Source: an uncultured Erysipelotrichaceae bacterium (lineage in GTDB: Bacteria > Bacillota_I > Bacilli_A > RFN20 > DUOF01). From it: a stretch of DNA of 64,000 nucleotides. The stretch lies in assembly GCA_964442785.1 (NCBI GenBank), contig CAYTZW010000001.1:14320-78319 (forward strand), read 5' to 3'. Below, in pieces: positions 15,635-63,263 of the stretch; position 1 is the stretch's first letter; each line of letters opens with the position of its first letter. A program made the position numbers and the translations under genes. Under the pieces are notes generated by a model that saw only the letters and a list, made by a program, of their open reading frames with translations, was not told where the DNA came from and did not search any database.

Positions 15635-15635
15635 T

Positions 15636-19116: not shown

Positions 19117-19118
19117 TT

Positions 19119-19679: not shown

Positions 19680-19736
19680 CTAAAATTATACTTTATTTAC
19701 ATTTGAGAGAAAAGAAAAAAGATTTGTTTCCAAATC

Positions 19737-21529: not shown

Positions 21530-23428
<1,899 letters not shown>

Positions 23429-23611: not shown

Positions 23612-24457
23612 TTATCCTAATTTGTTGGAAATTTCTATAAAGTCTTTTAGTTCTAATTCTTCTGCTCGAACATTCTCATTTAATTTCATTTCTTCTAAGA
23701 TTTTTTTCACTTTTTCTTTATCATATTTTTCTAAATTGTTGACTATTTTTTTTCTTCTCATTGCAAAAGATGTTCTTAATATATCTAAAAATAATTCTTC
23801 ATTTTTTAGATTTTCGTTTTTCTTATTCAAATTAAAATTTACGACACAGGAATCTACATTTGGTCTTGGTGTAAAGATGTTTTTAGAAACGTGTAAAGCG
23901 ATATGGCAATCACTGTAATAAGAAGATAAAATAGAAAGATTATTGTATTCTTTACCACCTTTTTTAGCACATATTCTTATAGCTACTTCTTTTTGCATCA
24001 TTGCGGTTATGGATTTTATTTTCGTGCTTTCTTGGAATATTTTTATTAAAATCGGTGTTGTTATGTAATAAGGAAGATTAGATACTATTACTACTTTTTC
24101 ATAATCTTGGAAATATTCTTCTATCACTTTATCTATATCTATTTTTAAAAAGTCTTGATTTATAACTGTTAAATTATCAAATTCTTTTAATTCATTATTT
24201 AATAAATCAATTAACTTCTTATCTATTTCAAAAGCTACTACTTTCCCTGCTTTTAAAAGTAGTCCTTCTGTTAAAGCTCCAATTCCTGGACCTATTTCAA
24301 TTACTCCTGTATTTTTATCTATATTTGCTGCTTCTACTATTTTATCTATTATTTTGTATTCGATGATAAAATTTTGCCCAAAAGACTTATTAGCAGATAT
24401 TCCATAATCTTTTAATATTTGAAAAGTTCTTGAATAAGTTGCAATTCTCATTTTCAT
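23612..24457 (-). CDS. rsmA: 16S rRNA (adenine1518/1519-N6)-dimethyltransferase
   Basis: FGQNFI motif and SAM-binding IEIGPGIGALT. Confidence 0.9.
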   Translation of the reverse strand: MKMRIATYSRTFQILKDYGISANKSFGQNFIIEYKIIDKIVEAANIDKNTGVIEIGPGIGALTEGLLLKAGKVVAFEIDKKLIDLLNNELKEFDNLTVINQDFLKIDIDKVIEEYFQDYEKVVIVSNLPYYITTPILIKIFQESTKIKSITAMMQKEVAIRICAKKGGKEYNNLSILSSYYSDCHIALHVSKNIFTPRPNVDSCVVNFNLNKKNENLKNEELFLDILRTSFAMRRKKIVNNLEKYDKEKVKKILEEMKLNENVRAEELELKDFIEISNKLG

Positions 24458-24978
24458 CTTCCTTTCTGAATATCTTCTTTTGTTAATCCTAACATATTAA
24501 ATTTCTTTAATAAACTTTTTCCATTTGATTTATCAATATGTAAGTTTTTACAGATTTCTTCCCTTTTTTTAGCGGAATCTTTATTTCCTATTAGTCCTAA
24601 TTCTAACATATCTTCAAGAGTAAAAGTTTGTTGATTTTCTTGATAAGTTACTACATTTTCTAAAGCCTTTAAAATATCTTCTTTTTTAGTTTCGGCAATA
24701 CCAACTTTTTTACCTTTTATCGCTTTTTCTTTTTCAATATAACAATGTTTACAATTCTTTATTCTATTTTGAATAATTTGTCTTATTCTTTTTCCTGGAA
24801 AATCAGGGTCAGTCATAATAATTATTTCTCTAGTTTTCGCTAGTTCTTCAATAAATAAAAGTGTTTCTTCACTTATTTCAGAACCATTAGTGATAATAAT
24901 GTCTGCTTCTAAAAAACTTTGTAGAAAACTTCTATCAGATTCTCCTTCTACGATTATTACTTCTTTAATCTTTTTCAT
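24454..24978 (-). CDS. rnmV: ribonuclease M5 (TOPRIM)
   Basis: EVIIVEGESDRSFLQ TOPRIM motif. The start was trimmed to MKKIKEV to remove the overlap with tatD. Confidence 0.8.
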   Translation of the reverse strand: MKKIKEVIIVEGESDRSFLQSFLEADIIITNGSEISEETLLFIEELAKTREIIIMTDPDFPGKRIRQIIQNRIKNCKHCYIEKEKAIKGKKVGIAETKKEDILKALENVVTYQENQQTFTLEDMLELGLIGNKDSAKKREEICKNLHIDKSNGKSLLKKFNMLGLTKEDIQKGR

Positions 24979-25744
24979 CTTTAATACCAAATAAACGTAA
25001 AGCATTTTCATACGTTTTTTCTTCTATATATTCTCTTGTTTTATTTCTCAGTAAAGCAATTTGATTAACTGTATAGACAATTAATTTAGGCTCATTCATT
25101 TTTCCTCTTAAAGGGTGTGGAGCTAAATAAGGAACATCTGTTTCCACTAACAATTTATCAATATCAACACATTTAGCAACTTCGTGAACTTTTTTAGCAT
25201 TCAAAAAAGTAACAGGACCCCCTAAAGAAATATACATTCCTAAATTAGTAAAATCCTTAATCATTTCTTTTGGTCCGCTATAGCAATGCATAACTCCTTT
25301 AGTTAAAAATTCTTTGTTTTCTTGTAAAATATTTAAAGTATCTTCTAAAGCATCACGAACGTGTAAAGAAATAGGTAATTTATATTTATAAGCTAATTTT
25401 ATAAATTTAACAAAATATTCTTTTTGAACTTTTTTTTCAACATTATCCCAATGGTAATCTAAACCTATTTCTCCAATAGCCACTACTTTCTTATTTACTA
25501 TTAGTTTTTCAATTTCAGAAATATAATCAATGCTTAAATCTTTAAACTCGGTAGGGTGAACACCAACCGCAACATAAACATTATGATATTTGTTAGCAAT
25601 TTCTACCGCTAACTTACTACTTTCAATATCATATCCAACGCATAAAAAACTTTTTACTCCTGCTTGTATTGCTTCTTCTAAATATTTTTCTAATTGAGAA
25701 TAAATATTTTTATCATTTAAATGTATATGTGTATCAAATATCAT
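24965..25744 (-). CDS. tatD: TatD-family metal-dependent DNase/hydrolase
   Basis: MIFDTHIHLND start and conserved metal ligands (GEIGLDYHW, HCYSG, ETDVPYLAP). Confidence 0.85.
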   Translation of the reverse strand: MIFDTHIHLNDKNIYSQLEKYLEEAIQAGVKSFLCVGYDIESSKLAVEIANKYHNVYVAVGVHPTEFKDLSIDYISEIEKLIVNKKVVAIGEIGLDYHWDNVEKKVQKEYFVKFIKLAYKYKLPISLHVRDALEDTLNILQENKEFLTKGVMHCYSGPKEMIKDFTNLGMYISLGGPVTFLNAKKVHEVAKCVDIDKLLVETDVPYLAPHPLRGKMNEPKLIVYTVNQIALLRNKTREYIEEKTYENALRLFGIKDEKD

Positions 25745-25746
25745 AT

Positions 25747-27090
25747 CTATTTACCCAAACAAAACTTAGAAAAAATTGTATCAATAATTTCATCTTGTTT
25801 TCTCTTTCCTAGAATATCTAACAACGCATAATAACAATCTTGTAAATCTACTGCTACTAAATCAACACTTAAACCTGCTTCATTAGCATTTATGGCATTT
25901 TCTAAACATTTCAAAGCTTGTTTTAAAAGTCCTATTTGTCTTACATTAGATAACATTGGCTTATTTTCATAATCCTTTGAATTAATACCAATAACATTAA
26001 TTAATTCTTCTTTTAAAGTATTGATATTGTCATCTTTAGCAGAAATTTCAATTCCTTCTAATTTCGTTTTTTTGTAACCTTTATCTATTTTATTTAAAAC
26101 TATTATTCTCTTTTTATTTTTTGTTAATTCTAACATTTGTTTATCTTCTTCATCTTCCTCTTGTGAACTATCAAAAACTAACAAAACAACATCGGCTTTT
26201 TTTATTGCTTCTTTCGATTTACTAACTCCTATTTTTTCTACGACATCAGTGGCTTCTCTTATTCCAGCAGTATCATAAAAATGTAAAGTTAAACCATTTA
26301 AATTCATTTTTCCTTCGACAACATCTCTTGTCGTACCTGCAATATCCGTTACAATCGCTTTATCTTCTCCTAATAAAACATTTAACAAACTAGATTTACC
26401 AACATTGGGTTTGCCCACAATCGCAACTTTAACTCCTTCAGTGATTATTTTTCCCATATATCCGTCATTAAGAGTTTTTACAATTTTATTTTTCAATGAA
26501 TTTAATAATTCTTTTAAACTTAATTGAGTGATTAAACTAGCTTCATCATACTCAGGATAATCGATGTTAACTTCTATTAAAGACCTAATATCTAAAATAT
26601 CATCTACTAATTCATTTATAACATTAGAGGTATTTCCTTTTAAAGAATTAATAGCGACTGAAACATTACTTTCACTTGTAGCCATTATCATATCGTGAAT
26701 GGCTTCGGCTTGAATTAAATCTAATTTTCCATTTAAGTAAGCCCTTTTGGTGTATTCTCCTTTTTCTGCCATTCTTGCACCATTTTTTATTAATTCCTTT
26801 AAAATATTGTTAACAATAAACATACCACCGTGGCAATTTATTTCTACTAAATTTTCACCAGTATAACTTCTTGGTGCACGATAAATTCCCACCATTACTT
26901 CATCGATAATAGTGCCATTATCATTATCTTTTATAAAACCATAAACCATCGAATGACCGACAACATTTTTTAAATCTTTAGAAAAAATCTTTTCGACTAA
27001 ATCAATAGCGTATTCTCCACTTACTCTTATAATCGCTAAAGCAGCATTCATTGGAGGAGTTGCCAAAGCAACAATAACATCATTTTCCAT
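25747..27090 (-). CDS. mnmE: tRNA modification GTPase MnmE
   Basis: G-domain GKPNVGKSSLLN and DTAGIRE, with the C-terminal CLGK motif. Confidence 0.9.
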   Translation of the reverse strand: MENDVIVALATPPMNAALAIIRVSGEYAIDLVEKIFSKDLKNVVGHSMVYGFIKDNDNGTIIDEVMVGIYRAPRSYTGENLVEINCHGGMFIVNNILKELIKNGARMAEKGEYTKRAYLNGKLDLIQAEAIHDMIMATSESNVSVAINSLKGNTSNVINELVDDILDIRSLIEVNIDYPEYDEASLITQLSLKELLNSLKNKIVKTLNDGYMGKIITEGVKVAIVGKPNVGKSSLLNVLLGEDKAIVTDIAGTTRDVVEGKMNLNGLTLHFYDTAGIREATDVVEKIGVSKSKEAIKKADVVLLVFDSSQEEDEEDKQMLELTKNKKRIIVLNKIDKGYKKTKLEGIEISAKDDNINTLKEELINVIGINSKDYENKPMLSNVRQIGLLKQALKCLENAINANEAGLSVDLVAVDLQDCYYALLDILGKRKQDEIIDTIFSKFCLGK

Positions 27091-27100
27091 TTTTACACTC

Positions 27101-27634
27101 CTATATATTTTTACTTATTTCGTTATTTTTTTGGAAAAAACAATCATCACATTCTTCAAATTTTTCCATATTTTTTTTAATGACTTTCTTATATAAAATA
27201 ACATCATTTTTATCAATAAAACTTACTTCATTTAAAGAAGAAAAATTTAACTTCAAACTTTTATCAATCGGCTTATCCATTTTGATAAAAGAATAGCCTT
27301 TATGCTTATAAAACTTACTAGCTTTATTATTTTTAGGTTCAAAAATACCATAGACATTTTTATTTCCGTCTTTAACAATTATTTCTTCAAATAAATCTAA
27401 AAGTTTACTACCTATTTTTTTACTTTGGTATTCTTCTTTAATCTCTATATTTCTTAAATAAATCAAATTATTCTTCAACTTTTCATAATATAAATGACCA
27501 ATATTTTCTTCTTTGTCATTAATAACTTCGATTTTATTATCATTAATTAAACAATAAATATTCTTATTTTTGTCATCATAAAATAAAGCTACTTTATCAC
27601 AATTATATTTTTCTTTAATATCTTTCAAAATCAT
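27101..27634 (-). CDS. GNAT-family N-acetyltransferase
   Basis: Acetyl-CoA motif QSKKIGSKLLDLFEE. Inserted between mnmE and jag relative to B. subtilis. Confidence 0.5.
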   Translation of the reverse strand: MILKDIKEKYNCDKVALFYDDKNKNIYCLINDNKIEVINDKEENIGHLYYEKLKNNLIYLRNIEIKEEYQSKKIGSKLLDLFEEIIVKDGNKNVYGIFEPKNNKASKFYKHKGYSFIKMDKPIDKSLKLNFSSLNEVSFIDKNDVILYKKVIKKNMEKFEECDDCFFQKNNEISKNI

Positions 27635-27708
27635 AAAAAAGCACCTCTTTTGTAATATTTTAACAATAAGAAGTGCTATTTTAAATATTTATTTTTCTTT
27701 TACACCAA

Positions 27709-28320
27709 TTAATCAATGTATTTGATAGTTAATTGTCTTTTTAATCCTTCTCCAATACTTTCGGTTTTAATATTTTTATAACCACTTAAAACATTATGGA
27801 TTACCCTTCTTTCATCTGCAGGCATAGGATCTAAAGTAATTGTTTGTTTTGTTTTTAGAACTTCGTGAGCATATTTCTTAGCCATACTTTCAATCTTAGC
27901 ATATTTGTTATCTTTATAATCTGCAACATTTAACAAAATTCTAAAATAATTTCTAAAAGTATTATTAACGGCAACTTTCACAAGTTCATTAAACATTTGT
28001 AAAGTTATTCCATTTTTACCAATAATCAAAGAATTATTATTAGTATTAATTTCAACATTGATGATAGGTTCTTTATATTCTATTGTAATTTCACTTTCCA
28101 AACCAAAATCATCTAGTAAAGTCTTAATATAATTCTTGATAAAATCAAAGACATCATTTTTAGTAAAAACTTCAATCTCGACTTTTTTAGAAAATAAACC
28201 TTTTTTTTCTTCCACTACATAATGATAAAATTCAGCTTTTTGCATATTTAATTCAACACAAGCATCATTAACTGCAGCTTCTTCTGTCTTATTTATAAAC
28301 CTTTTCATATTTCTTACCAC
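27709..28320 (-). CDS. jag: Jag/KhpB RNA-binding protein (KH + R3H)
   Basis: C-terminal R3H (ERRVIHNVLSGY) and the conserved position after yidC. Confidence 0.75.
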   Translation of the reverse strand: MVRNMKRFINKTEEAAVNDACVELNMQKAEFYHYVVEEKKGLFSKKVEIEVFTKNDVFDFIKNYIKTLLDDFGLESEITIEYKEPIINVEINTNNNSLIIGKNGITLQMFNELVKVAVNNTFRNYFRILLNVADYKDNKYAKIESMAKKYAHEVLKTKQTITLDPMPADERRVIHNVLSGYKNIKTESIGEGLKRQLTIKYID

Positions 28321-29359
28321 CTTTTTTATTATTTAAACTTAAATAGTGCATTACTAAAGTTTGTAGCACACTAAATACAGAACCTAAAGTCCAATAAATT
28401 GCCATTGCAGCAGGTAAAAAGAAACCTGTCCATAAAACTAACACTAACATAAATATCATTGTACCATTCATCTTTTGAGGTTTAACAACTTTACCTTGTT
28501 TCTTAGCTTTACTATTTGCTAACCAAGTTGACAATTTCATTGATAAGAATTGACCTAGAACCATAATGATAAATAATATAATTCCAAAGATATTTCCGTC
28601 AAAAACTTGTGTTGATAATTTTACTCCAAAAGATAAACCTAAGAAAGAACCTTCTTGTAAAATCGTAATATTTTGAACAGCACCCCACACCGCAATAAAT
28701 ATAGGCATTGTAATGAATGGAGTTAATAACATTGCTAATGGATTAATATTATACTTTGAATATAAATTTTGCATTTTCAAAGCATATTTTTGTTTTTCAG
28801 CTTGAGTTGTTGCTTTAGAATAAGCTTCATTAATTTCCATTAACTCAGGTTGAATTTCTTGTAACTTTTGAGTTTGTTTGGTACTTTTCCAAGTAATTGC
28901 TAAAACTAAGAACTTAATAAGGAAAGTAACTAAAACTAAAGAGAAGAATTTAGCGGTTCCTGAACCACCAAACCAATTAATAAATAAAATCATTAAGGCT
29001 GAAATAGGATAAACTAATAAACCTTCCATTAAACCTTTTTTCCAAGCATCTCCCCAAGTCTTCTTTTCGTATTTAACACCAGATTCAGACTCGTAATCAG
29101 AAGTAACAATACATTTTTTATCAAAATTTTTATATTCTTTATTCAATTTTGAATCTATATATTTTTGAATTTCTTCTTCAGTTGTTTTTCCTGCTTCTTG
29201 AGCTTCTTGTGTCCAAGTTGTTTCATATTGTTCTAGTAAATAAGATTTAATACTAGCCTTGTCTGCTTTACTACAAAAGTTAGATGTACAACCTGTGAAA
29301 ATAAAGACACAAAATACTAAAGGTAATAATTTAATTAATAACTTTTTTTTCTTTTTCAT
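28289..29359 (-). CDS. yidC: membrane protein insertase YidC/SpoIIIJ (lipoprotein type)
   Basis: Lipobox FTGC plus the YidC core TM helices; rnpA lies upstream. Confidence 0.85.
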   Translation of the reverse strand: MKKKKKLLIKLLPLVFCVFIFTGCTSNFCSKADKASIKSYLLEQYETTWTQEAQEAGKTTEEEIQKYIDSKLNKEYKNFDKKCIVTSDYESESGVKYEKKTWGDAWKKGLMEGLLVYPISALMILFINWFGGSGTAKFFSLVLVTFLIKFLVLAITWKSTKQTQKLQEIQPELMEINEAYSKATTQAEKQKYALKMQNLYSKYNINPLAMLLTPFITMPIFIAVWGAVQNITILQEGSFLGLSFGVKLSTQVFDGNIFGIILFIIMVLGQFLSMKLSTWLANSKAKKQGKVVKPQKMNGTMIFMLVLVLWTGFFLPAAMAIYWTLGSVFSVLQTLVMHYLSLNNKKGGKKYEKVYK

Positions 29360-29699
29360 AATTTTCCTCTATTCTTTCTTCCATTTTTTTATACAAAGTC
29401 TCTAATGATAAATAATTTCTTTGGAAATCATTATTCAAAAATTTTGACCTAGCGACAATAATTATATCATAAGAAAAATCAATATTGCATATATTTCTTA
29501 TCATTTCATTAATTTGCCTTTTCACTTTATGTCTAACTACTGAATTTCCTATTTTTTTACTAACGCTTACTCCTACTCTAATATATTCAAAATCATTTTT
29601 TTTATAATATATTGTATAAAAATCATTAGAAACAAATTTTTTCTTATTGATTACTTTTTGGAAATCTTCATTTTTTCTTAAACGATACTCTTTTTTCAT
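29331..29699 (-). CDS. rnpA: ribonuclease P protein component
   Basis: Basic 122-aa protein (KNEDFQKV...RHKVKRQ) immediately after rpmH. Confidence 0.8.
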   Translation of the reverse strand: MKKEYRLRKNEDFQKVINKKKFVSNDFYTIYYKKNDFEYIRVGVSVSKKIGNSVVRHKVKRQINEMIRNICNIDFSYDIIIVARSKFLNNDFQRNYLSLETLYKKMEERIEENYEKEKKVIN

Positions 29700-29880: not shown

Positions 29881-30269
29881 CACCTCCAAATAAATTTATA
29901 CCACGCTCAAATTATATAGATAAAATGTCTTTAAGTCAATAAAAATAAGGATTATCAACCAATTTTTTACTAACAAAATAATGTTGAAAACACACAAAAA
30001 ATATGTGGATAACTTTCAAAAAAGCCATATAATAAAAGAAAAACAAATGTTGATAACTTTATTCACTGTGGAAAACTTTATCCACTTTTACCCAATTTTC
30101 CCCGTTTATAAAGTTTTAGACAATTTATCCACAATGAATATTTGTTGACAATTGCTAAAAATCAATAATCATAAGGATTTTCATTGTTGAAAACTCTGTG
30201 GAAAATTAAAAATCAATAGACTTTTCCACAATAAATGGTATATTAAAGAAGGAATAAAGGAGTGGGAAA
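29881..30269. other. oriC: oriC DnaA-box cluster upstream of dnaA
   Basis: Perfect TTATCCACA boxes at 30004-30012 (minus) and 30125-30133 (plus). One-mismatch boxes at 30067-30075, 30078-30086, 30197-30205 and 30222-30230. Flanked by rpmH and dnaA. Confidence 0.8.
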
Positions 30270-31625
30270 ATGTTATCAAAACTAAATAATATTTGGGACG
30301 AGGTTCTTTCTAAGCTAAAAGTCCAAATAAATGATGCTAATATTTTTAACAATTTTCTATTATCTACTAAATTAGTAAATTTAGAAGGAGATACCGCTAC
30401 AATAAGTGTACCTTCCAAATTTACAAGGGAACTTATCGTTTTTAAATATTTAGATTTAATACAAAATTGTTTATGTGAAGTTACTGAAACAAACTTCAAA
30501 TGTGTAATCAAAGAAGAAAAAGAAATAAATGTTCCTGTAAGAGGAAATTTTACCAGCGATGAAGCTTTAAATAATACTAATTTAAATACTAAATATACTT
30601 TCGACAACTTTGTTGTCGGTACTTGTAATAGAGAATGTCATTCAGCTGCTTTAACAGTAGCTATTGAACCAGGTAATTTCTATAATCCACTTTTTATATA
30701 TGGAAAATCTGGAATTGGAAAAACCCATTTATTACACGCTATTGGGAATTATGCTAGATTAAAACAACCTAGAACTTTTAGAATTTTATATACTTCTTCT
30801 CAAGATTTTATGGACGACTTGTTCAAATCATTTAGAGAAGAAAGAGGAGCAGAAATCTTAAAAGAGAAAATTAAATCTATAGATTTACTTCTTATCGATG
30901 ATATTCAATTCTTCTCTGGAAAAGATAAAATGGGAGAAATATTTTTCCAATTATTTAACAATTTAATCAATTCAAGAAAACAAATCGTTATCACAAGTGA
31001 TAGACCACCTCATGAGCTAAAAGGATTAGAAGATAGATTAGTCAGCAGATTTGCTTCTGGACTAAGTGTTGGTATTGAAAACCCTGAATTTGATACATCT
31101 TTAAAAATCTTACACAAAAAAATAGAATCTTTAAATTTAACAACCGAAAAAATTGATGAAGATGTCTTAAATCATATTGCTTTGAAATATTCAAGCGATA
31201 TTAGACAACTTGAAGGAGCTCTTAATAGATTAATCTATTACGCTATCAATTTTAAACAACAAGAACATATAGATATGGATTTAGCTTTAGAGGCTTTTAA
31301 AGGTTTAGCACCTTCTGTTAGTAAAAAGAATGAATCCGTTTCTGTTGAAAGAATTAAAAATGCTGTCGCAGATTATTACAACTTATCCACAACTCAGTTG
31401 ATATCTAAAGTAAGAACTAACAATATTGCTACTGCAAGACACGTTGCAATGTATCTATGTCGAAGTATTTTAGACATTCCTTTTATTCAAATCGGAGTAG
31501 AATTTGGAGGAAGGGACCACTCGACTGTTATTAATGCGTGTGAAAAAATCGAAGAATTGTTGAAAACTGATGAGCAATATAAGAAAGCAATAGATGAGTT
31601 AAAATTCATCTTAAAAAGTAAATAA
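30270..31625 (+). CDS. dnaA: chromosomal replication initiator DnaA
   Basis: AAA+ signature GKSGIGKTHLLHAIGN and C-terminal DNA-binding domain ...ATARHVAMYLCR...GGRDHSTV. Confidence 0.97.
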   Translation: MLSKLNNIWDEVLSKLKVQINDANIFNNFLLSTKLVNLEGDTATISVPSKFTRELIVFKYLDLIQNCLCEVTETNFKCVIKEEKEINVPVRGNFTSDEALNNTNLNTKYTFDNFVVGTCNRECHSAALTVAIEPGNFYNPLFIYGKSGIGKTHLLHAIGNYARLKQPRTFRILYTSSQDFMDDLFKSFREERGAEILKEKIKSIDLLLIDDIQFFSGKDKMGEIFFQLFNNLINSRKQIVITSDRPPHELKGLEDRLVSRFASGLSVGIENPEFDTSLKILHKKIESLNLTTEKIDEDVLNHIALKYSSDIRQLEGALNRLIYYAINFKQQEHIDMDLALEAFKGLAPSVSKKNESVSVERIKNAVADYYNLSTTQLISKVRTNNIATARHVAMYLCRSILDIPFIQIGVEFGGRDHSTVINACEKIEELLKTDEQYKKAIDELKFILKSK

Positions 31626-38853: not shown

Positions 38854-38866
38854 AAAATGAAGTTTT

Positions 38867-38892
38867 TACTACTATGATATATCATAGTAGTA
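38867..38892. repeat. 26-bp perfect palindrome TACTACTATGATATATCATAGTAGTA between gyrA and serS
   Basis: Perfect inverted repeat with no downstream U-run, so not a classic intrinsic terminator. Lies 8 bp from parS-1. Confidence 0.5.
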
Positions 38893-38900
38893 AATACTAT

Positions 38901-38916
38901 AGTTTCACGTGAAACA
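38901..38916. promoter_or_regulatory. parS: parS site 1 (AGTTTCACGTGAAACA, 15/16 to consensus)
   Basis: Matches the Spo0J/ParB parS consensus TGTTNCACGTGAAACA; located in the serS leader. Confidence 0.75.
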
Positions 38917-38929
38917 TTTAGGAGGAAAT

Positions 38930-40216
38930 ATGTTAGATATAAAATTAATAAGAGAAAATCCTGACATTGTTAAAGAAAATATAAAGAAAAAATTTCAGGA
39001 CGAAAAATTACCATTAGTAGACAAAGTAATTGAATTAGACCAAAAGGTAAGACTTCTAAAAAAAGAAGGAGATGACTTGAGGTCAGAAAGAAATAGTACC
39101 AGTAAAAACATTGGTGTCTTAATGAGTAAAAAACAAATAGAAGAAGCAAATAATGCTAAAAAAAGAGTTGTCGAAATAAATGAAAGATTAATTAATATTG
39201 AAAAAGATGAAGAAGAATTAGACCAAGAAATTAGAAAAATAATGCTAGTGATACCTAATATTATTGATGCATCAGTTCCTATTGGAAAAGATGATAGTGA
39301 AAATGTAGAAATTAAAAAATATGGAGAACCAGTTGTACCAAATTTTGAAATTCCACATCACGCAGACATAATAGCTTCTTTCAATGGTTTAGATAAAGAA
39401 TCATCAGGCAGAACAAGTGGATATGGCTTTTATTATTTAATAGGAGAAATAGCAAGATTACATTCAGCAATGTTAAGTTATGCAAGAGATTTTATGATTA
39501 ATAGAGGTTTTGAATATTGTATTCCTCCATTTATGATTAGAGGAGATGTTGTAAATGGAGTTATGAGTTTTGCTGAAATGGAAAATATGATGTATAAAAT
39601 TGAAAATGAAGATTTATATTTAATTGGTACTAGTGAACACTCAATGATAGGAAGATTTAAAGACCAAATAGTAAAAGAAAGTGAATTACCTATCAAACTA
39701 ACTTCATATTCACCTTGTTTCAGAAAAGAAGTAGGAGCACACGGAATTGAAGAAAGAGGAATTTACAGAGTACATCAATTTGAAAAACAAGAAATGATAG
39801 TTTTATGTAAACCAGAAGAAAGTATGGACTGGTATAATAAAATGTGGAGTTATACCGTAGAATTCTTTAGAAGTTTAGATATCCCTGTTAGAACATTAGA
39901 ATGTTGTAGTGGTGATTTAGCAGATTTGAAAGTAAAAAGTTGTGATGTAGAAGCTTGGAGTCCAAGACAACAAAAATATTTTGAAGTTGGTTCTTGTTCA
40001 ACATTAGGAGATGCTCAAGCTAGAAGACTTTCAATTAGAACAAAAGGCGAAAAAGGAAATTACTTAGTTCACACTTTAAACAACACTGTATTAGCAACAC
40101 CAAGAGGATTAATTGCTTTTCTTGAAAACAACTTAAATGAAGACGGAAGTATAAATATACCAACAGCATTACAATCTTATATGGGTGGATTAAAAAAAAT
40201 AGAAAAAAGAAAATAA
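38930..40216 (+). CDS. serS: serine--tRNA ligase
   Basis: N-terminal coiled-coil arm plus class II core. The start was set at ATG 38930 (MLDIKLIREN), which follows AGGAGG. Confidence 0.92.
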   Translation: MLDIKLIRENPDIVKENIKKKFQDEKLPLVDKVIELDQKVRLLKKEGDDLRSERNSTSKNIGVLMSKKQIEEANNAKKRVVEINERLINIEKDEEELDQEIRKIMLVIPNIIDASVPIGKDDSENVEIKKYGEPVVPNFEIPHHADIIASFNGLDKESSGRTSGYGFYYLIGEIARLHSAMLSYARDFMINRGFEYCIPPFMIRGDVVNGVMSFAEMENMMYKIENEDLYLIGTSEHSMIGRFKDQIVKESELPIKLTSYSPCFRKEVGAHGIEERGIYRVHQFEKQEMIVLCKPEESMDWYNKMWSYTVEFFRSLDIPVRTLECCSGDLADLKVKSCDVEAWSPRQQKYFEVGSCSTLGDAQARRLSIRTKGEKGNYLVHTLNNTVLATPRGLIAFLENNLNEDGSINIPTALQSYMGGLKKIEKRK

Positions 40217-40351
40217 GTCAGAAAAGCTTATTTTTTTATTGCTTTAAATAATCTATGATTATTTAAGTTGATGATGATTAAAAATAATAATTATCAAAAA
40301 TAAAAAAATAAAAATAAAGTTGTAAAATTTTATTTAATAACATATAATAAT

Positions 40352-40438
40352 AGTGCTATCGCAATAGTAGAACATGAACCTGGTCAGATTCGGGAGAAAG
40401 CAGCCATAAGTGTAATCGCTGTGTGCGGTAGCCTTTTT
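40352..40438 (+). ncRNA. ffs: signal recognition particle RNA (small 4.5S-type SRP RNA)
   Basis: Conserved domain IV CCUGGUCAGAUUCGGGAGAAAGCAGCCAUAAG with a GGGA GNRA loop. The 5' GCUAUCGC pairs with the 3' GCGGUAGC. A promoter TTGTAA-17-TATAAT lies upstream and a T5 run downstream. The position before tadA/dnaX matches B. subtilis scr. Confidence 0.7.
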
Positions 40439-40450
40439 ATTAGAAAGGTG

Positions 40451-40466
40451 TGTTTCACGTGAAACA
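40451..40466. promoter_or_regulatory. parS: parS site 2 (TGTTTCACGTGAAACA, perfect 16-bp palindrome)
   Basis: Exact match to the parS consensus; overlaps the tadA RBS/start. Confidence 0.85.
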
Positions 40467-40911
40467 ATTAGAATATATAAATGAAGCATATAATCAAGCA
40501 AAAAAAGCTTATAAGCATAATGAAGTACCAGTCGGGGCTATTGTAGTCTATAAAAACAAAATTATTTCCAAAGGTTATAATAAAAAAGAAAGAAAAAACA
40601 ATTCTTTATATCACGCAGAAATAGTAGCAATCAATAAAGCTTGTAAAAAACTTAAATCGTGGAGATTGTCAGAATGTGAATTATATGTAACTTTAGAGCC
40701 TTGTTTAATGTGTGCAGGATTAATAATTCAAAATAGAATATCAAAAGTTTATTATGGTTGTGAAGATAATAAAAGTGGTGCTTTAGGTGGCTTAATGGAT
40801 ATTAGAGAAATCAAAGGTTTAAATTTCTATCCTAAAGCAGAATGTTTAGAACATAAGGAAAGTTCTGAAATTTTAAAAAAGTTTTTTAAAGAAAAAAGAA
40901 AAAATGATTAA
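40459..40911 (+). CDS. tadA: tRNA-specific adenosine deaminase
   Basis: CDA fold with HAE and PCLMC zinc ligands. The start is GTG 40459 (MKQLEYINEAY...) after GAAAGGTG; the alternative GTG at 40450 is also possible. Confidence 0.85.
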   Translation: MKQLEYINEAYNQAKKAYKHNEVPVGAIVVYKNKIISKGYNKKERKNNSLYHAEIVAINKACKKLKSWRLSECELYVTLEPCLMCAGLIIQNRISKVYYGCEDNKSGALGGLMDIREIKGLNFYPKAECLEHKESSEILKKFFKEKRKND

Positions 40912-41051
40912 GCAAAAATCCTATTTATTGAAAAGATATGATTTTTTAATAATTGTAAATTATTAAATATTTTATAAAAAAGAAATATATAATACTATTT
41001 TATATGGTTAAATACAAAAAAATAATGTATAATATTCAAGAGGTGAAAGCT

Positions 41052-42833
41052 ATGGCATATAAAGCTTTGTATAGAACTTATCGTCCTCAATCTTTTGATG
41101 AAGTGATAGGACAAAAATACATTTTACAAACTATTAAAAATCAAATAAAAGAAGGAACAATATCGCACGCATATTTATTCAATGGTCCAAGAGGAACTGG
41201 TAAAACCACAATGGCTAAGTTACTTGCAAAAGCAGTTAATTGTGAGAGTGATGATATTAAACCTTGTAATGAATGTGAAAGTTGTAAGGAAATAACAGAA
41301 GGCTCACACCCAGATGTTATTGAAATAGATGCTGCTAGTAATACTGGAGTTGATGATGTTCGTGAAATAATTGAAAAAGTAAAATATGCTCCTGCTAGAG
41401 GAAAATATAAAATTTACATTATTGATGAAGTACATATGATGTCTACTAGTGCATTCAATGCTCTTTTGAAAACTTTAGAAGAACCTCCTGCTCACGTAAT
41501 ATTTGTTTTAGCAACGACAGAGGTTAATAAGGTCTTACCTACTATTTTGTCGAGATGTCAAAGATTTGATTTTACAAAAGTAAGTACAATAGATTTGAAA
41601 ACGAAATTAAAAGAAATATTAGAAAAAGAAAATAAAAAATATGAAGAAGGAGTAATTGATGCTATCGCTGAATTAGCAGAAGGTGGTGTTCGAGATGCGT
41701 TGTCTATTCTTGACCAAACTATTGCTTACGCAGTAGATAACATTACTGTTCAACATATTAAAGATATCTATGGAATTACTTCTAATAGCGAAAAAATATC
41801 TTTCCTAGAAAAAATATTCAATAATGATGTTATGGAAGTTTTAAATCAAATTGATACATTTGAAAGAAATGGTATTGATTTAGTTAAGTTAACTTCTTCT
41901 TTAATAGATTTATTGAAAGAATTAATTGTTATATCAAGTACTCATAATGAAAAGTTGTTGAAAATATTAACGTTAGAACAAGCTTCTGATTTGAATGATT
42001 TAGTTGAAAAAGAAAGTTTGTATCCTATGATAGATGTTCTACTAGAATCTTTATCAAATTATAAAAAATCTAATAACATTCGTGCTTTCTTTGAATTGGC
42101 AATTTTGAAATTATGTTCTTATTCTAAAAAAGAAAAAAAAGCAGTTGTTCTTACTGAAACTAAACCTATTGTTCAACCTACATCTTTGTCTTTTAAAGTA
42201 GAAACAGAACCTGTTGTAACAAAAAGTGATTTTGAACGTAAAGAAGAAAAAATAGAAATTAAGGAAGAAATAAAAGATGAAATCAAAGAAGAAAATGTTT
42301 CACGTGAAACAACAGAAAATATTTTACCGGAAGGCTATTATAGAGAAAATGATAAAATAATTACTAAAGACGAAGATATTTATAATGTTATGGTTCAAGC
42401 TACCAAAGACTCTATTGTGGAGATTAAAAGTAAATGGACTGTTTTATCAGGATTTACGGGCAATCCTAAGTATGGAGTTATTATTGGTCTTTTAATGGGT
42501 ACTACTCCAGTAGCAGCTTGTAATAATGCTGTTTTATTAGCTTGTGAAAGTGATGTTGATGTTTCTATTTTAGAAAATGTAAAAAATAAGGTACTAATTA
42601 GAGATTTTTTTAAAAATCTCTATAATAAAGAAATTGAATATTATCCTTTAACTAAAAAGAAGTTTTTATTTTATAAAGATGAGTATTTAAAACTTAGGTC
42701 AGCACATAAATTACCAGAAGCTCAAAAAATTGTTGTTGAACCTATTAATATAAAATATAATGATGCTCAAAATGATCAAGCTTTAGATTATGGAAAGAAA
42801 ATTTTTGGCGATTTTGTTACAGTGGAGGAATAA
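41052..42833 (+). CDS. dnaX: DNA polymerase III subunit tau (DnaX)
   Basis: YRPQSFDEVIGQ, GPRGTGKTT and the zinc module CNECESC, with a Glu/Lys-rich linker and C-terminal domain V. The start was set at MAYKALYRTYRPQ. Confidence 0.92.
   Translation: MAYKALYRTYRPQSFDEVIGQKYILQTIKNQIKEGTISHAYLFNGPRGTGKTTMAKLLAKAVNCESDDIKPCNECESCKEITEGSHPDVIEIDAASNTGVDDVREIIEKVKYAPARGKYKIYIIDEVHMMSTSAFNALLKTLEEPPAHVIFVLATTEVNKVLPTILSRCQRFDFTKVSTIDLKTKLKEILEKENKKYEEGVIDAIAELAEGGVRDALSILDQTIAYAVDNITVQHIKDIYGITSNSEKISFLEKIFNNDVMEVLNQIDTFERNGIDLVKLTSSLIDLLKELIVISSTHNEKLLKILTLEQASDLNDLVEKESLYPMIDVLLESLSNYKKSNNIRAFFELAILKLCSYSKKEKKAVVLTETKPIVQPTSLSFKVETEPVVTKSDFERKEEKIEIKEEIKDEIKEENVSRETTENILPEGYYRENDKIITKDEDIYNVMVQATKDSIVEIKSKWTVLSGFTGNPKYGVIIGLLMGTTPVAACNNAVLLACESDVDVSILENVKNKVLIRDFFKNLYNKEIEYYPLTKKKFLFYKDEYLKLRSAHKLPEAQKIVVEPINIKYNDAQNDQALDYGKKIFGDFVTVEE
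42296..42311. promoter_or_regulatory. parS: parS site 3 (TGTTTCACGTGAAACA, perfect), embedded in the dnaX coding sequence
   Basis: Exact palindrome within the low-complexity DnaX linker (encodes NVSRET). Intragenic parS sites are well known, for example inside spo0J in B. subtilis. Confidence 0.85.
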
Positions 42834-48732: not shown

Positions 48733-48806
48733 GAGCAACATTTTGCTCTTTTTTCGTGCTTATTTATAATAAAAGTGATAAAATATCAAAAACAAGAGGT
48801 GAAATT

Positions 48807-50396
48807 ATGGCAAAGAAGTTTTATGTAACAACTCCTATTTATTATCCAAGTGGAAGATTGCATATTGGAAATACGTATACTACGGTAATTGCGGATTGTA
48901 TTAAAAGATATAAAAAGTTAAAAGGATATGATGTTTTCTTTTTAACAGGTACTGATGAACACGGTGAAAAAATTGAAGTAAAAGCTAAAGAAGCTGGAAA
49001 AACTCCGATTGAATTTGTTGATGAAATTGTCGAGAATACTAAAAAGTTATGGAAAAGACTAGGAATTGAATATGATGATTTTATAAGAACAACAGAAGAA
49101 AGACACGAGAAAATCGCTCAAAAAATATTTTCTAAATTTTTAGCACAAGGCGATATTTATAAAGGTTCTTATATGGGCAATTATTGTCGAAGTTGTGAGT
49201 CTTATTGGACAGACACTCAAGTTGGAGAAGAACACACTTGTCCTGATTGTGGCAAGCATACTGAAGTTAAAGAAGAAGAAGCTTATTTCTTTAAGATGAA
49301 TAAATACGCTCCTTGGTTGATTAATTATTATAAAGAAAATCCTTCTTTTATTTATCCAGAAGCAAGAACTAACGAAATGTTAAATAACTTTTTATTACCA
49401 GGATTAAATGATTTATGTGTTTCTCGTTCTACTATAAAATGGGGAATTCCTGTTAAAGAAGACCCAAAACACGTAATATATGTTTGGATTGATGCTTTGA
49501 CTAACTATATAACTGCTTTAGGATATGACAGTGAAGATGATTCTAAATTCCAAGAATTTTGGCAAAATCCTGATTGTGAAGTACTCCATTTAATGAGTAA
49601 AGAAATTGTTAGATTTCACACAATTTATTGGCCTATTATGTTAAAACAATTAGGTCTAAGATTACCAACTCAAATATATTCTCACGGCTGGGTATTAATG
49701 AAAAGTGGTAAAATGAGTAAGTCAGTTGGAAATGTTGTTTACCCAGAGTACATCATAGATAAATATGGAGTAGATGCTTTAAGGTATTATCTTGTAAAAG
49801 TTATCCCATTTGGACAAGACGGTACATTTACTCCTGAGATGTTTGTAGAAAATGTCAATACAGATTTAGTAAATAACATTGGAAATTTATTAAGTAGAAG
49901 TGTAGCAATGTGTACTAAATATTTTGAAGGAGTTGTTCCTTCTTTAAATGAAAAATCTTTAAACAATGTTGATAAAACTTTTATAGAAAAAGTAAATGTT
50001 TTATTAAATAAATTTGAAACAAATATGGATAAAATAAAATTAACGGAAGGTATCTCTACTATTTTTGAAATAGGCGATGTTGCTAATAAATATATTGATG
50101 AAAAAGAACCTTGGGTTTTAGCAAAAGATGAAAATAGAAAGGGAGAACTTGAAAATTGTATTCATAACTTAATTGAAACTTTAAGAAAAATTGCTATTTT
50201 ATTTAAAGCTTTCTTTATTGAAATTCCTGATAAAATGTTTGAACAATTAGGAGTAAATGAGGATAATCAAAGTTATGAAAGTTTAAGAGAAGATAGAGTA
50301 ACTTCTAATAAAGTAGAAAAGAAAGAAGCTTTATTTGCTAGACTTGATTTTGAAAAAGAAGTTGCTTATTTAGATGAAAAAATAAGTAGAAAATAA
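48807..50396 (+). CDS. metG: methionine--tRNA ligase (short form lacking the C-terminal tRNA-binding domain)
   Basis: HIGN (P-SGRLHIGNTYT), KMSKS and a zinc knuckle CRSCESYW...CPDCG. The start was set at MAKKFYVTTPIYY. Confidence 0.92.
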   Translation: MAKKFYVTTPIYYPSGRLHIGNTYTTVIADCIKRYKKLKGYDVFFLTGTDEHGEKIEVKAKEAGKTPIEFVDEIVENTKKLWKRLGIEYDDFIRTTEERHEKIAQKIFSKFLAQGDIYKGSYMGNYCRSCESYWTDTQVGEEHTCPDCGKHTEVKEEEAYFFKMNKYAPWLINYYKENPSFIYPEARTNEMLNNFLLPGLNDLCVSRSTIKWGIPVKEDPKHVIYVWIDALTNYITALGYDSEDDSKFQEFWQNPDCEVLHLMSKEIVRFHTIYWPIMLKQLGLRLPTQIYSHGWVLMKSGKMSKSVGNVVYPEYIIDKYGVDALRYYLVKVIPFGQDGTFTPEMFVENVNTDLVNNIGNLLSRSVAMCTKYFEGVVPSLNEKSLNNVDKTFIEKVNVLLNKFETNMDKIKLTEGISTIFEIGDVANKYIDEKEPWVLAKDENRKGELENCIHNLIETLRKIAILFKAFFIEIPDKMFEQLGVNEDNQSYESLREDRVTSNKVEKKEALFARLDFEKEVAYLDEKISRK

Positions 50397-50406
50397 GGTG
50401 TTAATA

Positions 50407-52281
50407 ATGAAATATGACATAATAGTAGTTGGAGGAGGACACGCAGGTATTGAAGCTTGCTTAAGTAGTGCTAGAAAAGGTCTTAGCACTCTTTTAGTTA
50501 CGCTTGATTTTTCTAATGTTGGTAGTGCTCCTTGTAATCCTTCAATCGGAGGACCTGCTAAAGGTGTTGTTGTTAGGGAAATAGATGCTTTAGGTGGTCA
50601 AATGGCGATTACCACAGATAAAACATATCTTCAAATGAAAATGTTAAATAGTTCCAAAGGACCAGGGGTTCAATGTTTAAGGGCTCAAATAGACAAGTTA
50701 GATTATAAAGAATATATGCAAAAAGTTATTAAGGAACAAAAAAACTTAGATGTCTTGGAAGATATGACTATTGATTTAGTGGTTGAAAATCAAAAATGTT
50801 TAGGTATTGTTACTAAAGAACACGGAAGAATTGATTCTAAATGTGTTATTTTAACTACAGGTACTTATCTTGAATCGACTGTTTTAGTAGGACATACCGC
50901 AACTATAAGTGGACCAGAAGAACAAAAATCCGCTCAAGGATTATCTCCAAAACTAAAAGAATATGGCTTAGAAATATTTAGATTAAAAACAGGAACACCA
51001 CCAAGAATTGATAAGGATAGTGTTGATTTTTCAAAAATGGAAGAACAACCTGGAACTAATCAAAAACTAGCTTTTTCCTATACAACAAAAGAATTTAAAC
51101 CTGTTGAAGAACAATGTATGTGTTATTTAATTCATACCAAACCAGAAACTCATAAAATAATTCAAGATAATTTACAAGAATCTGCAATGTATAGTGGTTT
51201 AGTAACCGGAATAGGACCTCGTTATTGTCCTTCTATAGAAGATAAAATAGTTAGGTTTTCTGATAAAGAAAGACATCAACTTTTTGTAGAACCAGAATCC
51301 AATAGAATGAATACTATATATTTACAAGGTTTTTCTACTTCAATGCCTAAAGAAGTTCAAGAAAAAATGGTTCATTCTTTACCAGGATTTGAAAAAGCTA
51401 AATTTGTTAAATATGCTTATGCAATAGAATATGATGCTGTTGTGCCTACCCAACTTTATCCTAGTTTAGAAACAAAAGTGATTGAAAATTTATTTTGTGC
51501 AGGACAAATAAACGGAACAAGTGGTTATGAAGAAGCTGCAGGACAAGGTATTATTGCAGGTATTAATGCTGCTAATAAAGTTTTAAATAAAGAACCTTTA
51601 ATTTTAAGGAGAGATGAAGCTTATATTGGTTTAATGATAGATGATTTAGTAACTAAAGGAACTCAAGAACCATATAGACTTTTAACTTCTAGGTCTGAAT
51701 ATCGTTTATTATTAAGACACGACAATGCTGATCAAAGACTTTTAAAATACGGCTATGAAAATGGTTTAATAAGTGAAAAAAGATATCAAGAATTTGAAGA
51801 AAAAATGGAAAATATCAAAAAATTAAAAGAAGAATTAGAAGAAGAAAGATTTACTTGTCGCCACCCTATTAATGAAAAAATTAAAGAATTAGGATATCCT
51901 GATATAGATAAAGGAGTAAGTGCAGTTGAACTTTTAAAAAGGCCTGCAATTACTATGGATTTATTAAAATCATATTTCCATAAGGAACATAACTACAACG
52001 ATGATGTTTTTGAAGAAGCGGAAATAGAAATTAAATATGAAGGTTATATCTTAAAACAATTAAAAGAAGCGGAAAGTTCTCGTAAATTAGAAGAAATGAA
52101 AATTCCTTTAGATTTAGATTATGATGCTGTTCCTAATTTAGCGTTAGAAGCAAGGCAAAAACTAAAAAAATTCAAACCTTTAACAATAGGACAAGCAAGT
52201 AGAATATCAGGAGTTAATCCTGCTGATATTTCTATTTTATTAATCTATTTTAAAGTTCAAAAAAAGAAGGAGAGTAATTAA
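50407..52281 (+). CDS. mnmG: tRNA uridine 5-carboxymethylaminomethyl modification enzyme MnmG
   Basis: FAD-binding site YDIIVVGGGHAGIEA and conserved C-terminal region. Confidence 0.95.
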   Translation: MKYDIIVVGGGHAGIEACLSSARKGLSTLLVTLDFSNVGSAPCNPSIGGPAKGVVVREIDALGGQMAITTDKTYLQMKMLNSSKGPGVQCLRAQIDKLDYKEYMQKVIKEQKNLDVLEDMTIDLVVENQKCLGIVTKEHGRIDSKCVILTTGTYLESTVLVGHTATISGPEEQKSAQGLSPKLKEYGLEIFRLKTGTPPRIDKDSVDFSKMEEQPGTNQKLAFSYTTKEFKPVEEQCMCYLIHTKPETHKIIQDNLQESAMYSGLVTGIGPRYCPSIEDKIVRFSDKERHQLFVEPESNRMNTIYLQGFSTSMPKEVQEKMVHSLPGFEKAKFVKYAYAIEYDAVVPTQLYPSLETKVIENLFCAGQINGTSGYEEAAGQGIIAGINAANKVLNKEPLILRRDEAYIGLMIDDLVTKGTQEPYRLLTSRSEYRLLLRHDNADQRLLKYGYENGLISEKRYQEFEEKMENIKKLKEELEEERFTCRHPINEKIKELGYPDIDKGVSAVELLKRPAITMDLLKSYFHKEHNYNDDVFEEAEIEIKYEGYILKQLKEAESSRKLEEMKIPLDLDYDAVPNLALEARQKLKKFKPLTIGQASRISGVNPADISILLIYFKVQKKKESN

Positions 52282-52994
52282 TGAATCCTAATGAATTTGT
52301 CCTTAAATTAAAAGAAAAAGGAATAATTTTAAACGAAATTCAAATCAAACAATTTCAAGATTATTATTCTCTTTTAAAAAAATGGAATGATGTTATGAAT
52401 TTAACAACCATTATCGAAGAAGAAAAAGTTTATGAAAAACATTTTTATGATTCTTTAACAGTGGCTTTTGATTATGATTTTACTTCTAAAAAAATGTTAG
52501 ATATTGGAACTGGAGCAGGTTTTCCTTCAATTCCTTTGAAAATTGCTTTTCCTACTTTGAACTTAACCGTTATGGATTCGGTTGCTAAGAAAATGAAATT
52601 TATTGAAGAAGTTGTCAAAGTTTTAGATTTAAAAAATGTTACTATCGTAGCTGATAGAGCAGAAAATTATATTAAAAATCATCGTGAAGAATTTGATGTA
52701 GTAACTGCTAGAGCGGTTGCAAGATTAAATATCCTTATGGAATTATCCGCACCATATTTAAAAATTGGAGGACATTTTATAGCTTTAAAAGGAGCAAATG
52801 GACAAGAAGAATATCACGAAGCGAGAGAAGCTTCCGAATTATTACACTTGAACTTGTACACTCATCAAGAAATAGAATTACCAGAAGAAAAGTCATCAAG
52901 ACATAATTACTTTTATATCAAAACTGAAAAAACTAATCCAAGGTATCCAAGAGCGTATAATAAAATTAAACAAAGTCCTTTAAAAAAGAGTTAA
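52281..52994 (+). CDS. rsmG: 16S rRNA (guanine527-N7)-methyltransferase RsmG
   Basis: GidB family with SAM site DIGTGAGFPSIPL. Confidence 0.9.
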   Translation: MNPNEFVLKLKEKGIILNEIQIKQFQDYYSLLKKWNDVMNLTTIIEEEKVYEKHFYDSLTVAFDYDFTSKKMLDIGTGAGFPSIPLKIAFPTLNLTVMDSVAKKMKFIEEVVKVLDLKNVTIVADRAENYIKNHREEFDVVTARAVARLNILMELSAPYLKIGGHFIALKGANGQEEYHEAREASELLHLNLYTHQEIELPEEKSSRHNYFYIKTEKTNPRYPRAYNKIKQSPLKKS

Positions 52995-53193
52995 TGAAAG
53001 AAAATTTTGAGCAAAGCAGTGCTATAAGTTCTGCTTTTTCTTTTGTGAAACAATTAAATGGAACACAAAAAAAGTATGAAAAATGCCCATAGAATAACAA
53101 CTCTAATCACTAACTTGCAATTTTTTGTGGAAAAATATTGATTATTAAAAATACCCGTGCTAAAATCACACTCAGGAGAGTGAGTAATTAATT

Positions 53194-53964
53194 ATGGCAA
53201 AGATTATTGCAATCGCTAACCAAAAGGGTGGAGTTGGAAAAACAACTACTGCAGTAAACCTATCTGGAGCCTTAGCTTATTTAGGTAGAAAAGTATTGTT
53301 AATCGATATGGACCCTCAAGGTAATGCAACGCGTGCAGTAGGTTGCGACGCAGCATTAGTAGAAGTAAGCTTGTACCACGTTTTAACAGGACAAGAAAAC
53401 ATCGAAAATGTTATAAAACCTACAACTTTAAGAAATATGTCTATATTACCAGCATCAATGGAACTTGCTGGAGCTGATCTAGAAATGGCTTCTGCTTTTG
53501 AGGATAGACAAGATAGACTAAAAAAGCAACTTGAAAGAGTTGAAAACAATTATGATTATGTAATCATTGATTGTCCACCTTCACTAGGATTATTGAATGT
53601 TAATGCTTTAGTAGCTGCTAATTCAGTTTTAATTCCATTACAATGTGAATATTTCGCTATGGAAGGTTTAGCTCAACTTTTATCAACAATTAGAAAGTTG
53701 CAACAAACAAAGAATTCTGACCTTGAAATCGAAGGCGTATTATTAACTATGGCTGACTTTAGAACAAGATTTTCTAACGAAGTAGCACAAGAAATAAGAA
53801 AATTCTTTAAAGAGAAAGTTTATCAAACTTCAATCCCTCGTTCAGTTAAGTTAGCTGAAGCTCCATCAAGAGGAAAAACTATTGTTGAATATAGTGTTAA
53901 CTCCAAAGGCGGAGTAGCTTACATTGACTTGGCAAGGGAGGTCATCTTACGTGGTAAAAAATAA
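53194..53964 (+). CDS. soj: chromosome partitioning ATPase ParA/Soj
   Basis: Deviant Walker A KGGVGKTTTAVNL and ParA motifs. Confidence 0.95.
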   Translation: MAKIIAIANQKGGVGKTTTAVNLSGALAYLGRKVLLIDMDPQGNATRAVGCDAALVEVSLYHVLTGQENIENVIKPTTLRNMSILPASMELAGADLEMASAFEDRQDRLKKQLERVENNYDYVIIDCPPSLGLLNVNALVAANSVLIPLQCEYFAMEGLAQLLSTIRKLQQTKNSDLEIEGVLLTMADFRTRFSNEVAQEIRKFFKEKVYQTSIPRSVKLAEAPSRGKTIVEYSVNSKGGVAYIDLAREVILRGKK

Positions 53965-54844
53965 TAGTGAAAAATTAGTAAAATTAGGAAAAGGCTTGTC
54001 TGCTATTTTAGATGATAATAGTTTAGGCAACCAAGTGGAAAGATTACAAACTCAAACTCCTGAAACAGATAGATATATGTTAAATATCATTGACATAGAA
54101 TCTAATCCTTATCAACCTAGAAAAGTTTTTGATGAAGTCAAACTTGAAGAACTTGCTAGTTCTATCAAACAACACGGAGTTTTTACTCCAATTCTCGTTC
54201 GTGTTAACCCTAATGATAGTAGTAAATATCAATTAATTGCTGGAGAAAGAAGATTAAGAGCTTCTAAATTAGCAGGTTTATCTTCAATTCCTGCAGTAAT
54301 TGCAAAGTTTAACGACAAAGAAATGATGGAGATTGCTCTTGTTGAAAATATTCAAAGAGAAGATTTAACTCCTATTGAAGAAGCAAAAGCTTATCAAACG
54401 ATGATTGAGTATATGAAACTTACTCAAGAGGAGGTTGGAAAGAAAGTAGGGAAATCCCGTTCCTATATTGCTAATACAATGAGACTATTAACTTTACCCG
54501 ATATTATTCAAGAATATGTAATGAACGGAGTTCTAACAATGGGGCACGTAAAACCTCTTGTAGGACTTGGTTATAAAGAAACTATGGAAATTGCTCACGC
54601 AGCAATTGAAAAAGGTCTTTCAGTTAGAGATGTAGAAAGTATGGTTAGATTGTATGAAAAGAAAAATACAATCCGTGCTGTAAAATCTAAAAAAGCTAAG
54701 AATCCTGTTTATGAAAAAGCAACAGCGTTACTTAAAGAACAAACAGGTACAAGAGTAAAAATCAAAACTGGTGAAATTAAAATATATTTTGCCAATGATG
54801 AAGATTTACAAAGAATTCTTAAAGCTTTAGAAGTTTCTAAATAG
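53951..54844 (+). CDS. spo0J: chromosome partitioning protein ParB/Spo0J
   Basis: ParB box GERRLRA and HTH. The start was set at GTG 53951 (MVKNNSEKLVKLGKGLSAILDD), which follows GGGAGG and overlaps the end of soj. Confidence 0.9.
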   Translation: MVKNNSEKLVKLGKGLSAILDDNSLGNQVERLQTQTPETDRYMLNIIDIESNPYQPRKVFDEVKLEELASSIKQHGVFTPILVRVNPNDSSKYQLIAGERRLRASKLAGLSSIPAVIAKFNDKEMMEIALVENIQREDLTPIEEAKAYQTMIEYMKLTQEEVGKKVGKSRSYIANTMRLLTLPDIIQEYVMNGVLTMGHVKPLVGLGYKETMEIAHAAIEKGLSVRDVESMVRLYEKKNTIRAVKSKKAKNPVYEKATALLKEQTGTRVKIKTGEIKIYFANDEDLQRILKALEVSK

Positions 54845-63077: not shown

Positions 63078-63263
63078 GGCTCGAAAGAGTCTTTTTTTGA
63101 CTGAAAAAAAGACTTCTCCACAATTTTTGAAAAAAGTTGTTTTTTCTTATCTTGATTAATCTAAAATATAATTGTGAAAGGTTAGTGTGACAATTATGAC
63201 ACAATATGCTTGAAAAAAGTTTATTTGAAGTGTTATAATGCATACATAATAGGAGGGATAATT

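Follow-up and report, generated by a model that had tools for sequence, protein, structure and literature searches.

Very probable parS centromere sites clustered near the replication origin of an uncultured Erysipelotrichaceae-like bacterium, with one site inside dnaX

The closest described counterparts of the system considered here are the chromosome partition systems of Bacillus subtilis and Streptococcus pneumoniae. The Spo0J (ParB)/Soj (ParA)-parS system of B. subtilis has 10 parS sites, 8 of them in the origin domain (PMC7022226, Table 1), with the consensus TGTTNCACGTGAAACA, and S. pneumoniae has four origin-proximal parS sites with the consensus AGTTTCACGTGAAACT (review PMC7022226). 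ParB spreading from one of the pneumococcal sites is reported to modulate the neighbouring competence operon (PMC4488948). Here we analysed a 64-kb stretch of contig CAYTZW010000001.1 (64,000 nucleotides, below called the window) from an uncultured Erysipelotrichaceae bacterium, in which an earlier note had pointed out a cluster of three parS copies. Like B. subtilis, this stretch has the identical 16-bp palindrome, a ParA partner, origin-proximal clustering and sites in coding sequence. Our literature search returned nothing specific on parS sites embedded in dnaX or on parS of Erysipelotrichaceae.

The bacterium is Erysipelotrichaceae-like and spore-forming, with 27% G+C, and the three 16-mers are very probably the parS sites that form its chromosomal centromere. 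Their positions and degrees of match were as the earlier note had given them:

38901-38916, no strand assigned: parS site 1, AGTTTCACGTGAAACA, 15/16 match, between the post-gyrA hairpin and the serS ribosome-binding site
40451-40466, no strand assigned: parS site 2, TGTTTCACGTGAAACA, 16/16 match, in the ribosome-binding-site/start region of tadA
42296-42311, no strand assigned: parS site 3, TGTTTCACGTGAAACA, 16/16 match, in the variable linker of dnaX

The window was scanned for TGTTTCACGTGAAACA, and the expected number of matches was determined from 100 dinucleotide-preserving shuffles. With at most two mismatches 4 matches were found in the window against 0.01 expected, and the observed count was reached by none of the 100 shuffles, so the claim that the copies lie beyond chance held. 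With at most one mismatch only the three sites were detected in the window, with none in its left 30 kb, and the extra matches that appeared at up to three mismatches were weak and scattered. All three sites share the perfect 14-bp core GTTTCACGTGAAAC, and they lie on one arm within 3.4 kb. Sites 2 and 3 match the B. subtilis consensus TGTTNCACGTGAAACA at all 16 positions, and the mismatch of site 1 falls outside the core, its outer A being that of the S. pneumoniae consensus AGTTTCACGTGAAACT (PMC7022226). When the flanks were compared, the similarity between the copies ended at the 16-mer with no meaningful extension, and the copies are therefore not part of a larger mobile repeat. The absence of a parS copy within parB, also claimed earlier, was seen at up to three mismatches.

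The genes for the two partition proteins are also present in the window:

53194-53964, + strand: parA (soj), a Walker-type partition ATPase with Pfam matches to AAA_31, CbiA, MipZ and ParA
53951-54844, + strand: parB (spo0J), 297 aa, with Pfam ParB_N and HTH_ParB, the predicted binder of the three sites

The 3' end of parA overlaps the start of parB, as in an operon, and the exact ParA protein is present in 16 public contigs. ParB carries GERRLRA, a form of the CTPase motif GERRxRA, and its best PDB match was B. subtilis Spo0J (6SDK, E 9e-54), with Noc structures ranking below. In an alignment with Caulobacter ParB (6T1F), the residues at positions 173, 179, 184 and 201 are R, T, T and G, its GKSR...ANT...GH aligning with Caulobacter R173, T179 and G201. 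According to PMC7383237, R173 and G201 do not vary among ParBs that bind parS (the RxxG class), and Noc has Q, K, K and R. A scan of almost all of the 64 listed open reading frames (ORFs) with 100 aa or more found no second ParB-like gene, and the palindrome of the Noc-binding site (NBS), TATTTCCCGGGAAATA, had no match in the window at up to three mismatches. A metagenome scan with ParB yielded distant ParBs, none of them above 45% identity.

The origin was placed at ~30 kb because the sign of the GC skew switches there and a group of DnaA boxes lies at the same place:

30004-30230, no strand assigned: oriC DnaA-box cluster, seven TTATCCACA-like boxes with at most one mismatch in ~230 bp, upstream of dnaA

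The distances from the three sites to the start of dnaA (30270-31625) are 8.6-12.0 kb, and parA-parB lies 10.9-15 kb downstream of the sites on the same (right) arm, after metS-mnmG-rsmG. Both distances in the earlier note (8.6-12 kb from dnaA and about 11-15 kb from the operon) were thus correct, the former supported by an origin assigned from GC skew and DnaA boxes and the latter by canonical ParA and ParB. The right arm starts with dnaA, dnaN, recF, gyrB, gyrA (end 38853) and serS (38930-40216), and continues with ffs, the gene of the signal recognition particle RNA (40348-40445), tadA (end 40911) and dnaX (41052-42833). These are followed by dut, ybaB, recR, tmk, holB, a PSP1-domain gene, rsmI, metS, mnmG, rsmG, parA and parB; no noc gene was found between rsmG and parA. 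On the left arm rnpA, yidC, jag and mnmE are followed by tatD, rnmV, ksgA, yabG, pth and mfd. The gene order of the oriC region (23612-29699 and 48756-54844) is that of the B. subtilis map after one origin-spanning inversion, with breakpoints at mnmE|mnmG and metS|tatD. Such an inversion puts mnmG-rsmG-parA-parB on the dnaA arm and tatD-rnmV-ksgA beside mnmE. The mnmE-tatD junction was also seen in three of the related loci (L002, L003 and L005).

The protein partner resembles that of B. subtilis as well, being 297 aa long with GERRxRA and helix-turn-helix regions and having Spo0J as its best structural match. The two systems differ in that parB here is without an internal parS, all detected sites lie on one arm in 3.4 kb, and parAB, preceded by metS-mnmG-rsmG, is on the same side of oriC as dnaA instead of left of oriC. 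Unlike in B. subtilis, there is no noc between rsmG and parA, and the sites are at serS, tadA and dnaX, which are not B. subtilis positions. With S. pneumoniae the window shares the small number of sites near oriC and the outer A of site 1, which fits the pneumococcal consensus, whereas parA, which S. pneumoniae lacks, is present here. The pneumococcal precedent, in which a parS beside a promoter affects transcription, may also bear on sites 1 and 2.

Next to these distant systems, orthologous sites were found in closer relatives. A DnaX protein search returned the identical protein, encoded on an NCBI contig of 80 kb, and further relatives at 83% (one) and 73% identity (three); the record of one of the 73% relatives is an Erysipelotrichaceae bacterium metagenome-assembled genome (MAG). 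On the contigs of these matches the genes between dnaA and parA are ordered as in the window, and all three sites were present at orthologous positions in these relatives with 73-83% DnaX identity. At site 1 the relatives have the same variant AGTTTCACGTGAAACA, with 16/16 positions invariant (L088, L092) as compared to 70% in the flanks. Site 2 is perfect in the relatives, with 16/16 invariant positions (L088, L092, L093) against 75% in the flanks. The 83% relative has a perfect site 3 and the 73% relatives have TGTTTCACATGAAACA there; 15/16 columns are invariant, in comparison to 38% of the flanks. In ~36 kb of a 73% relative the same three sites, and only these, were detected.

The DnaX linker that holds site 3 is rich in K and E, and the site is 1.3 kb into the coding region of an ORF of 609 aa whose true start is M17. 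Site 3 reads E-N-V-S-R-E-T, in accordance with the NVSRET peptide named in the earlier note, and uses the rare codon CGT (10% of Arg codons in the window). In a DnaX scan of GTDB species genomes the relatives, which were Erysipelotrichales and unclassified Bacilli MAGs, had 39-50% identity, or 58% over one partial match. Six Erysipelotrichaceae loci (L013, L026, L045, L072, L073 and L078) share the identical 16-mer in their DnaX linkers, where it gives (N/D)VSRET amid an unalignable linker at ~40% DnaX identity. VSRET or VSHET was found at the same linker position (~aa 415-438) in 24 of the 120 DnaX homologues, and the codons were GTT TCA C(G/A)T GAA ACA everywhere that DNA was retrieved (15 VSRET/VSHET loci and L114-L116). 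At the loci with DNA, VSRET was always encoded by TGTTTCACGTGAAACA and VSHET by (T/C)GTTTCACATGAAACA, the base before these codons being T except for a C in L116. The VSHET form with its asymmetric centre, TGTTTCACATGAAACA, is retained at L088-L092 (~11296), L114 (11275), L115 (11236) and L116 (10570), and no other parS-like site was found up to 10 kb on either side of dnaX in L114-L116. The closest GTDB DnaX relatives (L001-L008) have no parS within 10 kb, and the motif is absent from them. Given VSRET, the chance of the exact codons is 0.0038 per lineage under the codon usage of the window, and the codons that flank the dnaX site have fully diverged. Because the sites form orthologous islands in variable flanks and the VSRET codons are identical, the compared sequences indicate that purifying selection acts on the parS DNA itself. 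This agrees with the earlier claim that the dnaX copy is selected at the level of DNA and not of protein.

In the Longicatena/Holdemania and Coprobacillaceae groups, as in the window, the same 16-mer occurs in 2-3 copies no more than a few kb from the serS-tadA-dnaX-holB-rsmI block. The six loci with the dnaX-linker site also have a site in the serS-tadA spacer; four of the six place it 60-100 nt upstream of ffs, unlike in the window, where it is found just downstream of ffs. The locations in Coprobacillaceae differ from ours: there the sites are in holB (at ~aa 258, read in the frame FHVK), directly 3' of rsmI, and before metS. The same 16-mer was also found in non-coding DNA.

By analogy with the described systems, ParB dimers, encoded 11-15 kb downstream, would recognise each palindrome via their helix-turn-helix domains. 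ParB would bind CTP through the GERRxRA motif, close into a clamp and slide to the flanking DNA. The three sites in 3.4 kb may in this way give one partition complex centred ~10 kb to the right of oriC, on which ParA would act to separate the sister origins. The complex would also load SMC, as in B. subtilis and S. pneumoniae (PMC7022226). The sequence of the sites, their non-random occurrence, their position, the cognate genes and the purifying selection on the DNA are established here. Some points weigh against the identification as centromere sites. ParB binding, spreading, ParA action and SMC loading are carried over from model organisms, and smc and scpAB lie outside the 64-kb window. The count of copies covers 64 kb of the genome, and the copy number may be high elsewhere. 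ParB has K (54451-54453) at the equivalent of Caulobacter R204 (GHVK vs GHAR), a conservative change at a residue that contacts parS and is conserved in ParB and Noc alike (PMC7383237). Finally, the 73% relatives and three lineages further removed have CACATG at the centre of the dnaX site, and binding of ParB to this variant is speculative.

Other explanations for the palindromes were also considered. The dnaX copy might have been kept since (N/D)VS(R/H)ET is a functional peptide motif of DnaX, the likeness to parS being a by-product, and the recurrence of VSRET or VSHET at one linker position in 24 of the 120 homologues would fit this. However, every locus with DNA uses the same codons, at a chance of 0.0038 per lineage, next to flanking codons that have fully diverged. 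The 16-mer is moreover found in another frame (FHVK) in Coprobacillaceae holB and in non-coding DNA, and L001-L008, the closest DnaX relatives from GTDB, are without the motif. We regard a peptide motif as very unlikely. Even less credence is given to the palindromes being operators for another protein, for instance a ParB paralogue of the Noc type or a regulator of serS, tadA and dnaX that binds CACGTG. Sites 1 and 2 do overlap the serS ribosome-binding-site/promoter region and the tadA start, as an operator might, but site 3 sits 1.3 kb within a coding region. The parS consensus is furthermore matched at all 16 positions, whereas the Noc site TATTTCCCGGGAAATA is absent from the window at up to three mismatches, and at the specificity positions the sole ParB-family protein encoded in the window carries R and G, not the Q and R of Noc.

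The least probable explanation in our opinion is that the matches are due to chance or base composition, or are pieces of a mobile element or dispersed repeat. In its favour there is only the 14/16 copy at 58081, described below, which behaves like a chance match. The shuffles (0/100 reaching the observed count), the end of copy-to-copy homology at the 16-mer and the conservation of orthologous positions across species all speak against it, and within the window it is effectively refuted already.

The surroundings of sites 1 and 2 were studied for overlap with expression signals. Site 1 ends 14 nt before the serS ATG (38930), just 5' of a GGAGG ribosome-binding site. The earlier note had placed it in the serS leader; it is indeed upstream of serS, but the gyrA-serS spacer (38854-38929) is merely 76 nt long and is without a T-box. 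A serS T-box is present in the relatives L016, L045, L065, L072, L073 and L078. The serS T-box leader of Holdemania (L065; 5475-5676) contains a perfect parS at 5622. A strong hairpin was predicted at ~38861-38898, between the gyrA stop and site 1, with -21.5 kcal/mol and z = -4.9. The core of this post-gyrA palindrome is ACTACTATGATATATCATAGTAGT; its outer arms carry compensatory changes in L088 and L092, and the part CTATGATAT/ATCATAG is invariant. No U-tract was found 3' of the hairpin on the + strand, and a gyrA 3' stabiliser, a terminator and an operator are candidate roles for it. A serS promoter over site 1, ATGATA-18-TATAGT at 38874-38903, was tried and set aside as weak (9/12) and speculation only. 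Its spacer is 18 nt here as compared to 19 nt in L088, and in the promoter scan such sites were no commoner than in shuffles.

Site 2 starts 6 nt past the 3' end of ffs (40445) and its T-rich tail, and covers both candidate GTG starts of tadA, 40450 and 40459, so the claimed overlap with the tadA start applies to either. The annotated tadA starts of the relatives vary, all being within the palindrome or one base before it. The start codon is probably the central GTG of site 2 (40459), judging from the sequence context; this GTG is the better-spaced one because the AAAGGTG Shine-Dalgarno sequence ends at 40450.

A wider evolutionary reading can be based on these overlaps, and we hold it to be rather improbable. 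The dnaX-linker parS would in this case be an ancient intragenic centromere, retained, with CACGTG or CACATG at its centre, throughout the history of a group that spans the Erysipelotrichales, and sites 1 and 2 would have been fixed later on the expression signals of serS and tadA. These signals are, for site 1, a position between the hairpin and the ribosome-binding site and over the weak candidate -10, and, for site 2, a GTG start directly after the ffs terminator. ParB occupancy might then also tune how serS, tadA and dnaX are transcribed, as is the case with comCDE and ParB in S. pneumoniae. In our literature search, neither a parS that is retained in the DnaX linker throughout a family nor the overlap of sites 1 and 2 with expression signals was found described.

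A fourth copy, AGTTTCACCTGAAACA, with a 14/16 match at 58081-58096, encodes PVSPET inside a 200-aa protein of no assigned function (57992-58594), which has a C-terminal hydrophobic tail and is membrane-anchored. The copy is located in the most variable stretch of this protein, where relatives have PVLTEA, TVVTET or VAPQP, and no site with at most two mismatches was found at the equivalent position in L110-L113. It was rejected as a fourth parS, being conserved neither at the peptide nor at the DNA level, and by this comparison it is probably not functional; the best reading is a weak match that is due to chance or specific to this species. As it is not conserved, it serves as an internal negative control for the conservation of sites 1-3.

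The system as a whole is an ordinary, well-understood one, and the understanding of ParABS is unchanged by it. New here, as far as the compared sequences go, are the orthologous conservation of the three sites and the retention of the dnaX-linker site across Erysipelotrichaceae. In this uncultured, Erysipelotrichaceae-like lineage, of which most is known through metagenomes, the sites mark the partition complex and oriC with confidence, and can be used for orienting or closing MAG assemblies and for reading Hi-C maps. The parS in the DnaX linker is a textbook case in which selection on DNA overrides the freedom at the protein level, at ~40% DnaX identity. The positions of parS sites turn over between families, and neighbouring families use the holB and rsmI-adjacent sites instead.

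Two other features of the window were recorded. Between ksgA and yabG there is an ORF of 632 aa with collagen-like Gly-X-Y repeats (21530-23428), for which the matches to the Scl and Lcl adhesin models fall below the cut-offs. A region with a pilin gene of a type IV secretion system (T4SS; 63210-64000) follows spoIVA, ~33 kb from oriC. T4SS genes, including a VirB4/TraC-like ATPase, are conserved in relatives (L110 at 14596-19855 and L112 at 9021-14328), and those after spoIVA may belong to an integrated conjugative element or to a resident conjugation-type apparatus.

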